Position numbers and translations under genes: made by a program
Source of the DNA: a virus
DNA length: 64,000 nt
Direction: 5' to 3' (one strand)
UHGV virus genome: UHGV-0277504
The notes under the pieces: model-generated
Seen by the model: the letters and a program-made list of their open reading frames with translations, nothing else
Databases searched by the model: none
Told to the model about the DNA's origin: nothing
Part shown: piece by piece, positions 2,876 to 38,930 of the stretch
Layout of the letters: each line of letters begins with the position of its first letter
Numbering within the stretch: position 1 is the stretch's first letter

Positions 2876-3097
2876 ATGAGAAAACAAGTAATGGTATATT
2901 CAAAACTAAATTGTAAAGAATGTGGGAACCACTTTATGGTTCCTAGAAAAAGAGCAAAAAGAAGAGAAGAAGGTCATATCAAAGACTTATATTGTGTAAA
3001 ATGTAAAAAAACAACAAAACATATTGAGGATAACAGAAGTGAAACAGAAAAATTCTGGGATGAATTCCATTCAAATAGAAAATATCAAAAAAATTAA
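2876..3097 (+). CDS. small zinc-ribbon protein
   Basis: CKECGN...CVKCKK four-Cys motif; AAGGATTTGA SD. Confidence 0.55.
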   Translation: MRKQVMVYSKLNCKECGNHFMVPRKRAKRREEGHIKDLYCVKCKKTTKHIEDNRSETEKFWDEFHSNRKYQKN

Positions 3098-3127
3098 TAA
3101 AAAATTTAAAAAAGTTTTAAAATAAAC

Positions 3128-3156
3128 TTGACACAGGGTTATTTTTATGTTATGAT
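3128..3156 (+). promoter_or_regulatory. sigma70-consensus promoter TTGACA-17-(TGt)TATGAT driving non-coding transcript
   Basis: TTGACA 3128-3133, 17-nt spacer, extended -10 TGTTATGAT; shares aaaatttaaaaaagtttt upstream element with promoter at 1847. Confidence 0.7.
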
Positions 3157-3163
3157 ATATGTA

Positions 3164-3981
3164 TCAAATAAAACAAATCCCTTACACAACTGTTTTTTCA
3201 TTACGTTGTTTTCCAGTTCAAACAATAACAGCGTTTGCCTATAACTAATGATTAGACTATAAACAAATCAAGAGGAAATTAGTCTATTCCTCTAATATAA
3301 TTTTAATACAACTAAACATCTGAACATAGTGACTGAATAAGTGAGTGATGTCACTAAGGTGTAAGAATGTCTTAGGAAGCCTACTAAAGTGTGAGAACCT
3401 TTAGAGGTATCCTCAGAGGGATATTTATTCCGAAAGGATTGCTTAGCACTTGGATATAAGGATTATACGGTAGAGAGACTATCAGTGATGAATCACTAGT
3501 CAAGGTCTTAGCGGAATCTTGACTAGTTACGCTACTAAAATCATTTACGTGGTTGGAGCCTAGAAATAGGTTTGATAATGATTGTCTTTCGTACAAGTAG
3601 CACAAACCCACGATAAAGCTAAAGAAAACAAAAAATATATGTTATTTTAATTCTTCACATCGTGTGAAAGTTGGTAAGTAACTGTCCTTACCCCTATACT
3701 GTGGAAACACTCATAAAAGTGGACTATGGCTAGCTACCATATAGAACTTTCTATGACTAGGTTACCTAATAATAATTCTTGTATTTCAGGTTCCCCGTGA
3801 AAAGGGATATGTTTGGATGTTTAGTTGTATTATACAACTAACTTCTCTTTCATTTTAATATTCATATCAATGGTTTTTGACTCCTTTACCATTGATAGAG
3901 AGAAACCCCTTATAAGAACATATTCATTTGTACAAACAAACACCTCCTTATAAAAAACAAAAAAACTTATAAGGGGTTTTT
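3164..3981 (+). ncRNA. candidate large (~820 nt) structured non-coding RNA, class unknown
   Basis: no ORF on the transcribed strand, GC-richer than flanks, many perfect local hairpins (ACTAGTCAAG 3495-3504 / CTTGACTAGT 3519-3528), closing helix AAACCCCTTATAAG 3901-3914 / CTTATAAGGGGTTT 3966-3980 then T-tract. Confidence 0.45.
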
Positions 3982-4085
3982 ACATACACATAACCCTAAT
4001 AACCTGAATATAATTTGCTTGATATTTATATTCAAAAAAAATAAGGTAAGTACTTTTTAAAGGTTTTTGTCTCACCTATACATAA

Positions 4086-4451
4086 ATGAAAAAAGGAATT
4101 GTTATTGTGGCAAAGAAAAAAACATTAGCTCAAAAAACATATGAAGATACAGTAAAAGCTAGAAGATGGTTTGCAGGTACTCGAAATGAATTTAATACAG
4201 CAAGAGCAAAAAAGAAAAATACTGAATCTTTTTTAAAACAATCAAAAGAAGATATTAAAACAGCTAGTGAAAAAGGTAGATTTAGTTGTATATTGTATTA
4301 TAAAGTATTTAAGTTTAAAGAACCTGTAGAAGGGTATAATAAACAAGAAATATTATCAGCACTTAAAGAGTTGGATAAAGAAGGATTTAAAACAACATAT
4401 GAGGATACTCAAGATGGTGTATTAGTGAGTGCTAGATGGGATAACGAATAA
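4086..4451 (+). CDS. hypothetical basic protein
   Basis: ORF track; lysine-rich 121 aa. Confidence 0.5.
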   Translation: MKKGIVIVAKKKTLAQKTYEDTVKARRWFAGTRNEFNTARAKKKNTESFLKQSKEDIKTASEKGRFSCILYYKVFKFKEPVEGYNKQEILSALKELDKEGFKTTYEDTQDGVLVSARWDNE

Positions 4452-12895: not shown

Positions 12896-13951
12896 ATGGA
12901 ATTACAAGAAGTAACTTTATTAACTCCTTTAGATAATTTTGTAGTGTATAAAAACGGAAGAAGGAGAGTTTATGTAAATTGTTTATGTATATGTGGTAAT
13001 AAAATATGTGTCAGAGAAGATTCTTTTAAAACAAAAACAATAAAGTCTTGTGGTTGCTATAAAAAATATATTTATAATAAAGTGAAAAACCAACCTTTTC
13101 CTATAAATATAAAACGTATAAAAAATAATATTTACTATCCTATATATGGTTTTATAGGTTATTATATATCTATGAATGGTAAAATATATAGTGAATTTAC
13201 AGACAGATTTATAAAAAGAAGAAAAAACAAGAAAAATTATGTTATAGTTTCTATAATGGAAAGTGATAAAACAAAGTCTGAGCCTGTATTGTTGCATAGG
13301 TTATTAGCAAAGACGTTTATACTTAATAAAGATAATAAAGAAACAGTAAATCATAAAGATTTTAACACGTTAAACTACTCTCTATCTAACTTAGAGTGGG
13401 CAACACAACAGGAAAATAACAGTCATAGGAATAACGCAAATTATAGTGGAGAAAGAAATAATAAATCCTTTAAATTAAAACCAGAAGATGTTAAAGAAAT
13501 TTACGAATCCACCCTACCATATGAGGAGTTAGAATCATATTACGGTGTTAAAAAACAAATGTTATACAAAATAAAAAATGGCAAGTGTTGGTATGAAGTA
13601 ACAAAAGATTTAAAAAAAGGAAATTCAGATAAAAACTACTTAGACAATGAAACAATTAAAAGAATTTATAAAGAAGAAGGAAAAATAAAAGATATTGCTA
13701 AAAAATACAACGTATCAAGAGAAACTGTATCAAAAATTAAGCAACGTAAAATACATTCCAATGTTACAAAAGACTTAGTAAAAGGAGAATCTACTCACAA
13801 TCATTTCACTAAAGAATTAGTTAAGAGTATATATCTGTGTGAAGGAACGCAAAAGTATATTGCAAATAAATTTAATATCAGTCAGTCAGCTGTATCAAAT
13901 ATAAAAAGTGGAAAAACATATAGTAATATTACAAAATATATTAAGAAATGA
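12896..13951 (+). CDS. free-standing HNH homing endonuclease with NUMOD-like C-terminal repeats
   Basis: HNH_3-like HRLLAKTF..NKDNKETVNHKDFNTLNYSLSNLEW..QQEN; three VSKIK..K.HSNVTK repeats. Confidence 0.7.
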   Translation: MELQEVTLLTPLDNFVVYKNGRRRVYVNCLCICGNKICVREDSFKTKTIKSCGCYKKYIYNKVKNQPFPINIKRIKNNIYYPIYGFIGYYISMNGKIYSEFTDRFIKRRKNKKNYVIVSIMESDKTKSEPVLLHRLLAKTFILNKDNKETVNHKDFNTLNYSLSNLEWATQQENNSHRNNANYSGERNNKSFKLKPEDVKEIYESTLPYEELESYYGVKKQMLYKIKNGKCWYEVTKDLKKGNSDKNYLDNETIKRIYKEEGKIKDIAKKYNVSRETVSKIKQRKIHSNVTKDLVKGESTHNHFTKELVKSIYLCEGTQKYIANKFNISQSAVSNIKSGKTYSNITKYIKK

Positions 13952-19263: not shown

Positions 19264-19286
19264 TAAATTATTTTTTTAAAATAAAC

Positions 19287-19315
19287 TTGTAAAAATAACA
19301 AATGTATGTTATAAT
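19287..19315 (+). promoter_or_regulatory. promoter TTGTAA-17-TATAAT
   Basis: drives ORF-free structured region. Confidence 0.5.
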
Positions 19316-19321
19316 GTGATT

Positions 19322-19670
19322 ATCAGTATCCTAACACCTCTTAATAATGTGAAACACAGGGTGCAGTTTTTACTTAAAACCTTTTAAGGTTTGACTTACT
19401 AGAGAGTACAGTAAGTTGCTTGCATATTGGCTTTGTAAATATGTGTTGGTTCCGACATGAAACTTCTTCATTGTCCGTACTCTATTGACCTATCTACCAT
19501 GTTGTAGAAAAGGACTACATTAACGTTAATAGAAAATGACCTTAAACCTGCAATTACTTATCATAGGAAAACTATGATAAGTCCCTGCTATATAGGTATA
19601 CTTTAATCAATGTAACCTAGGGACATACGATTGAGTATACTATTATATAGTATACATTGCAGGTTTTTTA
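19322..19670 (+). ncRNA. candidate ~350-nt structured non-coding RNA
   Basis: no ORF, GC-richer, perfect hairpins TTATCATAG/CTATGATAA (19558-19580), GTATACTAT/ATAGTATAC, GTCCCT/AGGGAC, closing helix CCTGCAAT (19547-19554)/ATTGCAGG (19656-19663) + T6. Confidence 0.4.
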
Positions 19671-19719
19671 TATAATTAATGTTATATTATCTAGTGTAAG
19701 AAAAAATATACGATAAGGG

Positions 19720-37982: not shown

Positions 37983-38159
37983 TTACCAACTTACTCTTTC
38001 TAATCGTTTTTGATAATATGGTAACTCATCATAGAATTCTCTAGCTTCTGTCTTCCAATAAAATCTTTTACCGTGTGACTTACCTTCATCATCAATCCAA
38101 ATTACATTCCATTCACTCATACTAAATGTATCTGTTAATTCTTTAATAATACCAAACAT
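37983..38159 (-). CDS. small 58-aa protein
   Basis: AAAGAGGTG SD; promoter just upstream. Confidence 0.35.
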   Translation of the reverse strand: MFGIIKELTDTFSMSEWNVIWIDDEGKSHGKRFYWKTEAREFYDELPYYQKRLERVSW

Positions 38160-38199
38160 TTTATTAACACCTCTTTATTAAGTTTTTGTTGTTAAGTTT

Positions 38200-38228
38200 A
38201 TTATAATATTAATATTGATAGATGTCAA
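38200..38228 (-). promoter_or_regulatory. sigma70-consensus promoter TTGACA-17-TATAAT (minus)
   Basis: rc. Confidence 0.65.
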
Positions 38229-38274
38229 CACTTTCTATAAATTTCTTTAAATTTTTGAAAAAATAAGAGTTATT

Positions 38275-38478
38275 TTAATCCTTCTTTTTAAACTTTAAAG
38301 TCACTACATCTCTAAAATGATTATTTCTTGTATGCGTTTCTGAAAGTTTATAATTAGTTATCATTTCAATAACTTCATAATCTACTAGGTTCAGACGAGA
38401 TATATGAATATTAGTTTCATCTTTTCCGTCAAATAATCTTTTTAATATTTTTATTGTTGGTTGCTCAAAGTTTTTCAC
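38275..38478 (-). CDS. hypothetical protein
   Basis: ORF track. Confidence 0.45.
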   Translation of the reverse strand: MKNFEQPTIKILKRLFDGKDETNIHISRLNLVDYEVIEMITNYKLSETHTRNNHFRDVVTLKFKKKD

Positions 38479-38531
38479 CTTTTAAAACCTCTTTCTTTTG
38501 ATAATTGATTTAAAATTCTATTTATAGTTTA

Positions 38532-38930
38532 TTAATGTTTCACCACTGGATAATGAATATCTTTTATTTTTAACGAGCATATACTGTAATAAAAATCACC
38601 ATTACCTGCATCTGCATAACATTCACCTTGTGCTATAGGGTTTTGGTTATGATATAAAACAACAGTAGCCAGACTTTCTGATTCAACACTCCATGTATCA
38701 AACTTTTGTTGTTCTCTCTCATTCTCTATTTTCACATTTGTAATAACTGCATCTAGTTTTACATTAGTCCATTCTCCACCAGCACTTGCACAACAATCTT
38801 GTTCACTTTCCACTATTTCTACAAGAGTGCCATCATCTAAAGTCAATGTTTTATCAGTCCATTCCTTGACTTTTTTATATAACAATTGTTTTTTTATTTC
38901 CTTAAATTCTTTATAATTAATTTTATACAT
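38532..38930 (-). CDS. hypothetical protein
   Basis: ORF track. Confidence 0.5.
   Translation of the reverse strand: MYKINYKEFKEIKKQLLYKKVKEWTDKTLTLDDGTLVEIVESEQDCCASAGGEWTNVKLDAVITNVKIENEREQQKFDTWSVESESLATVVLYHNQNPIAQGECYADAGNGDFYYSICSLKIKDIHYPVVKH

Follow-up and report, generated by a model that had tools for sequence, protein, structure and literature searches.

ROOL RNAs (RF03087; Weinberg et al. 2017, PMC5737381) rank among the largest protein-free RNA assemblies known, and no function has yet been found for them. One of them, the long non-coding RNA (lncRNA) of the L. salivarius megaplasmid (Cousin et al. 2017, PMC5643018), belongs to the canonical Rfam members; it is plasmid-borne, constitutively expressed in its bacterium, very abundant and stable, and likewise of unknown function. 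GOLLD (RF01998) is another large, ornate, phage-associated, abundant and cage-forming RNA whose function is unknown. Here we examine a 64-kb window, i.e., the whole 64,000-nt stretch analysed from the virus genome UHGV-0277504, which belongs to a Sepunavirus, a myovirus that infects Staphylococcus epidermidis (99.9% identity at this locus to vB_SepM_BE04 and others). We consider it very probable that positions 3304–3832 on the plus strand of the window (to which all window coordinates below refer unless stated otherwise) encode a divergent ROOL-family RNA, which is the Sepunavirus orthologue of the Kayvirus RNA known as lncRNA2. The RNA would thus extend an established family by a divergent member and does not found an RNA class of its own. 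As an abundant lncRNA it is already known experimentally in sister phages; its value lies in the link between ROOL and a tractable phage system and in a variant without the apical stem that has a covarying self-complementary loop.

In the Kayvirus phage K, lncRNA2 was placed by RNA sequencing at 38,024–38,566 (2024, PMC11598898). Its reads appear from 2 minutes after infection and rise throughout, and two lncRNAs jointly account for 27% of the reads, their function being unknown. In vB_SauM-515A1 the RNA at 38,000–38,525 makes up 8.4% of counts, and the counterpart promoter was described as a typical early promoter (PMC7698491). The possible affinity of these RNAs to the large ornate classes has been raised before: a 2022 paper stated that the K lncRNAs ‘resemble GOLLD and ROOL’, based only on their proximity to tRNA genes and their abundance (PMC9241854), and a 2023 review restated that likeness as sequence similarity without presenting an analysis. 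Our literature search found no paper demonstrating homology of the lncRNA2 clade to ROOL. Nor is Staphylococcus named in the text, or in part of the supplements, of the cryo-electron microscopy (cryo-EM) study in which the Rfam model was run across phage genomes.

A sensitive Rfam scan of positions 3050–4100 recovered a match to ROOL at 3310–3823 that spans model positions 1–574 (67.7 bits, E = 3.6e-13), and ROOL was the only Rfam family with a significant E-value in this interval. The curated gathering cut-off of RF03087 is 99.1 bits, and because the match falls under it, a scan of the whole window at the gathering cut-off gave no matches. The same sub-threshold match, again with ROOL as the sole significant family, was obtained in all six further Twortvirinae phages scanned, representing at least five genera: Twillingate (90.4 bits), CF5 (Silviavirus, 62.5), SscM-1 (Sciuriunavirus, 62.1), Twort (60.4), BS1 (Baoshanvirus, 55.8) and K (Kayvirus, 36.5). 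The E-values across the seven sequences range from 1e-5 to 1e-18; six of them, the window included, cover the model in full (positions 1–574), whereas the BS1 match is confined to 182–526. For comparison, canonical ROOLs score 190–360 bits, and a control stretch of equal length from elsewhere in the window yielded no ROOL match. The models for GOLLD, group I and II introns, RNase P and tmRNA gave no match at E <= 10 in 3050–4100 and none at the gathering cut-off in the whole window, in which ARAGORN also found no tmRNA. GOLLD also differs from the present RNA in its fold.

An original prediction, made from the bare sequence, had pointed to ROOL and GOLLD as comparisons and had proposed an Rfam scan as a check; the choice was apt, with ROOL matched by the covariance model below its cut-off and no GOLLD, intron, RNase P or tmRNA alongside it. 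Its further suggestion that the RNA may be undescribed does not hold, since the core is a divergent ROOL homologue matched over its full length and repeatedly so in the six other phages, and since it is also the orthologue of the published and highly abundant lncRNA2.

The orthology with lncRNA2 is borne out by several lines of evidence. The ROOL match in phage K occupies 38,019–38,584, and the core of the window aligns over its whole length with Kayvirus by both blastn and nhmmer (nhmmer E ~1e-136). We found homologues at the DNA level in 271 phage records, without exception Twortvirinae, and conservation outside Sepunavirus ends at about position 3833. Moreover, the loci are syntenic across the Twortvirinae: a Zn-ribbon gene is followed by the RNA and then by the holin and endolysin genes, the latter within 1–2 kb. 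The Sepunavirus and Kayvirus RNAs therefore agree in synteny, promoter class, core alignment and RNA limits. The published limits of lncRNA2 coincide with the core closed by helix P1 (see below), which indicates that the stable species in the present phage is probably 3304–3832 and not the whole of the roughly 820 nt that follow the promoter. Kayvirus differs in an extra insertion of ~35 nt and in three tRNA genes downstream, in place of which Sepunavirus has a unique 3' tail.

The other abundant RNA of phage K, lncRNA1, gave a separate observation. Its 3' part (13,632–13,768, equivalent to 233–369 on the minus strand of our locus L124) has a near-threshold match to DUF3800-I (43.4 bits, E = 4.8e-5, the cut-off being 44.2 bits). 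Neither the ROOL nor the GOLLD model matches lncRNA1, and blastn found no counterpart of it in the window.

The 529-nt core (3304–3832) is delimited by the RF03087 match, by covariation and by the limits of the phage K orthologue. It resembles ROOL in its length, in the range of ~530–600 nt, and in being closed by a long helix, and its junctions and hairpins succeed one another as they do in the model throughout. To evaluate its fold we aligned 21 distinct Twortvirinae sequences. A de novo RNAalifold consensus, derived with no ROOL input, contains 126 pairs, of which 82 show compensatory changes; the comparative alignment that had been suggested as a further check thus favours a conserved structure. 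The structure projected from ROOL onto the same homologues gives 73% paired cells as against 38–44% with slid partners, 61 pairs changed on both sides as against 17–26 in the slid controls, and a covariation score of 0.39 as against at most 0.17, with a few helices lying one register off relative to the model alignment. In the window itself 123 of the 159 RF03087 model pairs are present, 99 of these being canonical. The core is closed by P1, a helix of 24 pairs (3304–3329/3807–3832) with compensatory changes in most pairs in Baoshanvirus-type sequences. The original prediction had instead assigned the closing role to the inverted repeat AAACCCCTTATAAG/CTTATAAGGGGTTT (3903–3916/3966–3979); the T run that follows it, ending at 3981, is indeed there, but the repeat encloses a loop of 48 nt and the real closing helix is P1.

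Within the core we recovered features of the cage-forming ROOL RNAs (Kretsch et al. 2025, PMC12286853; 2026 review, PMC12990946), namely the pseudoknot beside the GAAA hairpin, the complementarities that map to bridges B4 and B6, and the variable internal linker. Hairpin P8 (in the numbering of Kretsch) has 14 pairs at 3495–3527, with 11 of 12 stem pairs covarying, and includes the perfect hairpin ACTAGTCAAG/CTTGACTAGT (3495–3504/3518–3527) that had been quoted as an example of local folding. Its loop AGCG (3510–3513) is complementary to the junction CGCU (3530–3533), and the complementarity persists in the variants AGUG:CACU (Twort) and GGUG:CACC (CF5); canonical ROOLs show covarying complementarity at the corresponding loop and junction. 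This loop–junction pairing appears to correspond to the intermolecular bridge B4 of the ROOL cage (L8 with J6/8). The pseudoknot CGUGG/CCACG (3548–3552/3608–3612) has the variants UGUAG:CUACA and UGUGG:CCACA, with flanking extensions. Its two strands lie 5' of the GAAA hairpin and 3' of the motif GUACAAGUAGC, and canonical ROOLs have a covarying pairing at both places. The covariance model is blind to the pseudoknot and to the loop–junction pairing, and these therefore constitute evidence independent of its score.

The motif GUACAAGUAGC (3591–3601) is an exact copy of the Rfam consensus, with the 3' strand of the pseudoknot following it at 3608–3612. After this comes an A-rich hypervariable linker (3613–3653), which is unalignable between genera, has large indels and takes the position of the disordered internal linker of ROOL. 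The next motif, GUGAAAGUU (3664–3672), is nearly invariant in the 21 homologues and equals the Rfam consensus. These two motifs, along with the ROOL motif UGAAnAAG and the GAAA hairpin, are exact or nearly exact in the window and invariant, or almost so, in the 21 homologues. A joint search with GUACAAGUAGC and GUGAAAGUU returned 91 viral contigs. We scanned 20 of these; 19 carry ROOLs of 190–360 bits, and among the contigs with the motif pair is Brochothrix phage A9, another Herelleviridae phage, with a canonical ROOL. Finally, the hairpin L18 of Kretsch (L15 of Wang; 3725–3741) displays the self-complementary loop CUAGCUA (3730–3736). The loop core remains self-complementary across its variants, UAGCUA, UUGCAA, AGCU and, in Twort, CG (the whole Twort loop being equal to the Rfam consensus GGUCGCUCC), and the loop of the A9 ROOL, GUAGCUC, is identical to that of Kayvirus. 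The L18 loop corresponds to B6, the symmetric kissing contact between the half-shells of the cage. It differs from ROOL in having been lengthened to 4–6 nt in most Twortvirinae genera, and the clade supplies fresh covariation at a loop that was too conserved to test in the cryo-EM study.

These features suggest a course of events in the infected cell. Transcription would start at a promoter at 3128–3156, proceed through a leader and the core, and end at a hairpin with a T run near 3981. The core would then be trimmed to P1, or simply outlast its flanks; in the orthologues the stable species of ~540 nt is the P1-closed core. The core may assemble by itself, with no protein, into a closed shell of identical copies that houses the A-rich linker. 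Given the missing apical stem, such a homo-oligomer may count six copies, like the L. salivarius ROOL, and not eight. As a working guess, the shell could sequester or scaffold a host or phage macromolecule, perhaps ribosome- or tRNA-related, during the takeover of the cell. This guess draws on ideas in the ROOL and GOLLD literature and on the conserved Zn-ribbon neighbour with its putative annotation as ‘ribosome associated inhibitor A’. A more specific version, in which a streamlined apex-less ROOL with a longer self-complementary loop and a different cage copy number acts with the leader RNA and/or the Zn-ribbon protein to capture ribosomal or tRNA-related host components early in infection, strikes us as unlikely; were it true, phage K and SEP1 would be the first systems in which a ROOL function could be shown by genetics.

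We also find it unlikely that, instead of forming a free cage, the ROOL homologue acts in cis or as a processing scaffold, for instance by stabilising co-transcribed downstream tRNAs or the lysis genes or by timing their expression. In Kayvirus (K, PSC1), Silviavirus (CF5) and O1-102 the RNA is indeed directly followed by one to three tRNA genes with no obvious terminator in between, and the holin and endolysin genes lie within 1–2 kb downstream in all genera. However, the RNA has been retained in the present window without any tRNA gene, and a strong hairpin with a T run separates it from the next gene. Read counts in phage K are far lower for the tRNAs downstream than for the RNA itself (PMC11598898), and the motifs for intermolecular contacts are conserved.

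The assignment to ROOL has to be weighed against several departures from the canonical family. None of the seven sequences scanned reaches the Rfam cut-off (36.5–90.4 bits), and the well-conserved consensus positions are identical in only 96 of 191 cases (50%). Two modules are missing: model positions 109–134, comprising one hairpin, and model positions 210–232, comprising the apical stem (P7 of Kretsch, P10 of Wang) with its AAUAGAC junction, a motif carried by 17 of 17 canonical ROOLs examined. A sequence-only profile of these 17 canonical ROOLs found nothing in the whole window and gave only weak central matches in a small database, so that the clade is detected only once structure contributes to the model's score. 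As evidence, the self-complementary loop depends on few independent changes. Unlike the usual ROOL context, there is no tRNA or tmRNA gene anywhere in the 64-kb window, and the host element is a virulent 140-kb myovirus, not a prophage or a megaplasmid.

Some of these differences have parallels. According to the literature the apical stem is not always conserved: the L. salivarius ROOL, a hexamer where others are octamers, has an ultrashort one and is the nearest precedent for a ROOL without an apex. A natural apex-less variant bears on what sets the copy number of the cage. Like many ROOLs, the RNA is carried by a phage, and sister genera have it beside tRNA genes.

The same departures are what would favour a separate, unnamed class of large structured phage RNA whose likeness to ROOL is due to convergence or to composition, the Rfam match then being misleading; the cmscan alignment also includes 15.9 bits of composition bias. 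We regard this as very unlikely. It does not explain why E-values of 1e-5 to 1e-18 recur in seven sequences with no other family, why long motifs are identical, or why the pseudoknot and both kissing contacts, invisible to the covariance model, are positioned as in canonical ROOLs; moreover, a canonical ROOL is present in another Herelleviridae phage. A divergent ROOL thus remains our favoured assignment.

How such a clade could go unannotated is suggested by the behaviour of the searches. A single sensitive Rfam scan of 14 loci (54 kb) returned tRNAs only, and the ROOL matches reappeared when at most 2 kb was searched per scan; search filters thus drop the clade at ordinary search sizes. This filter loss, together with the failure of the sequence-only profile and the sub-threshold scores, may be why the clade has not been annotated. 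Searches that rely on the Rfam threshold or on filters miss it entirely, and many GenBank records place spurious small open reading frames (ORFs) over the RNA.

Those records raise the question of whether the region codes for small proteins, as annotated there (hypothetical proteins and a ‘putative membrane protein’), with small coding sequences (CDSs) given in Twort, Twillingate, Quidividi, MSShimriz1 and BE24/25. This is highly improbable. The annotated ORFs vary in place and strand between records and none is conserved across genera; among the 21 homologues we found no ORF with a common position, strand or length and no 3-nt periodicity of substitutions (0.24/0.21/0.21 over the three positions), indels are not multiples of three, and the substitutions are pairwise compensatory. 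In the window the plus strand offers only two ORFs, of 38 and 42 aa, both with TTG starts, one inside the -35 box and the other inside helix P1. The claim of about 820 nt without a credible ORF is thereby upheld.

On the opposite strand, an ORF of 75 aa at 3384–3611 was considered as a gene and rejected, its frame being interrupted by stop codons in most other genera.

The composition and folding of the region are likewise those expected from the original prediction of a promoter-driven, non-coding and highly structured large RNA that is neither an intron nor a gene, which has proved correct. The G+C content is 0.32–0.38 across 3200–3900 and 0.19–0.27 in the flanks, and the 828-nt transcript folds at -208.9 kcal/mol as against -165.5 +/- 6.9 in shuffled sequences (z = -6.27). 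In the alignment, 319 cells are G-U and 19 are A-C, an asymmetry that identifies the plus strand as the functional RNA. The least credible alternative is that the region works as DNA, for instance in replication initiation or packaging. It can appeal to the proposed origin of phage K nearby, between gp190 and gp191 (PMC11598898), but this origin is found on the upstream side of the Zn-ribbon gene and is not transcribed, whereas the RNA region is the most highly transcribed of K, and the excess of G-U over A-C bespeaks selection on one RNA strand.

The transcript that contains the core would begin at a strong sigma-A-type early promoter at 3128–3156, with a -35 box TTGACA (3128–3133), the TG of an extended -10 (3148–3149), a -10 box TATGAT (3151–3156) and a 17-nt spacer. 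It scored 11/12 in our promoter scan, in keeping with the near-perfect promoter that had been predicted. Sites of the form TTGACA-N14-TGnTAnnnT, of which this is one, occur 21 times in the window where 0.07 are expected by chance, and the promoter therefore belongs to the phage's strong sigma-A-type class. It is kept in all genera that carry the leader element described below, and its position predicts a transcription start near 3163. Upstream lies the A/T-rich, UP-like element AAAATTTAAAAAAGTTTT at 3101–3118. A copy with one mismatch is found at 1820–1837, upstream of the promoter of the Bro-N gene, so the A-tract proposed to be common to the two promoters is real; both copies sit at an equal distance, 27–28 nt, from the TTGACA box. 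Nearer to the core, the only promoter-like sequence is AGGAAA-17-TATAAT (3273–3301), which matches 3 of 6 positions at -35 and falls under the scan threshold.

The transcript was initially seen as one promoter-to-terminator unit; instead, it is a composite of the leader (3180–3234), the 529-nt ROOL core and a Sepunavirus-specific 3' tail. The leader opens with the invariant, single-stranded CCUUACAC (3180–3187), which is followed by a hairpin (3206–3211/3220–3225) extended by 3203–3205/3232–3234. In addition, ACUG (3189–3192) is complementary to CAGU (3214–3217) in the hairpin loop, and the two might form a pseudoknot or an alternative stem. Over the first ~70 nt after the promoter the leader is ~80% identical across genera, above the conservation of the core. 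Its pairing amounts to 91% paired cells versus 36–64% with slid partners, with three pairs changed on both sides, and in Twort both stems are rewritten at matching positions (CUAGG/CCUAG and UUUUUU/AAAAAA). No Rfam family matches the leader; it is present in a single copy in the window and, among viral contigs, only in Twortvirinae.

In contrast to the window, Kayvirus has the leader as a separate unit and gives the ROOL RNA a perfect promoter of its own. In phage PSC1 (locus L013 coordinates) the leader unit, within 1785–1950, has a promoter scoring 12/12 (1785–1813) and a terminator (1914–1941), and a second 12/12 promoter (1962–1990) lies ~10 nt before P1. The leader of Kayvirus is therefore probably a separate small RNA of ~120–130 nt. 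Twort has two promoters as well. As the window keeps only the upstream promoter strong, leader and ROOL are probably made as one primary transcript here.

The 3' tail (3833–3985) is found only in Sepunavirus, where it is nearly invariant, and folds at -32 kcal/mol. Its first hairpin (3865–3874/3888–3897) shows one compensatory change, in PG-2021_23 (CAATGG/CCATTG to CATTGG/CCAATG). The second, of 16 pairs (3901–3916/3966–3981), includes the inverted repeat mentioned above and its 3' arm ends in five T (3977–3981); from this arrangement it is likely to be the terminator, and its 48-nt loop accounts for its not being called by the terminator scan. Within this loop, CACCUCCUU (3941–3949) resembles the 3' end of 16S rRNA (the anti-Shine-Dalgarno sequence) and is invariant in Sepunavirus. 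Read on the opposite strand, 3941–3949 is a perfect ribosome-binding site, but the ORF behind it has just 5 codons.

The gene upstream of the RNA (2876–3097) encodes a basic Zn-ribbon protein of 73 aa. It falls into PHROG 1257, which carries the annotation ‘ribosome associated inhibitor A; zinc finger’, and has no Pfam family above the cut-off. It precedes the ROOL in all Twortvirinae loci examined and is absent from the canonical ROOL loci examined, which indicates that the pairing of the Zn-ribbon gene with ROOL is specific to the Twortvirinae.

Annotated CDSs overlap ROOL RNAs in A9 (gp60, on the opposite strand; L123 3974–4396), in Twort (ORF073–076; L002 1811–2295) and in Twillingate (065–067, including a ‘putative membrane protein’; L001 1553–2334), and these are probably spurious.

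Phage K, SEP1-like phages and Twort belong to the therapeutic Staphylococcus myoviruses, and identification of their extremely abundant and hitherto unexplained lncRNA2 as a probable divergent ROOL joins two literatures. It also places a ROOL in virulent, genetically tractable phage–host pairs for which RNA-sequencing time courses exist, a setting in which its function can be tested.

Lastly, we observed a second gene-free, promoter-to-terminator-like unit at 19286–19672. It has the promoter TTGTAA-17-TGtTATAAT, some 350 nt of sequence, and a CCTGC...GCAGG hairpin followed by a T run. It contains no ORF of 40 aa or more, folds with z = -3.85 and gave no Rfam match at E <= 10. The unit is 93–100% conserved in Sepunavirus. 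Phages Alsa_1-4 and PG-2021_27 share most of it at 90–95%, and there it is either unannotated or lies under ‘hypothetical proteins’.

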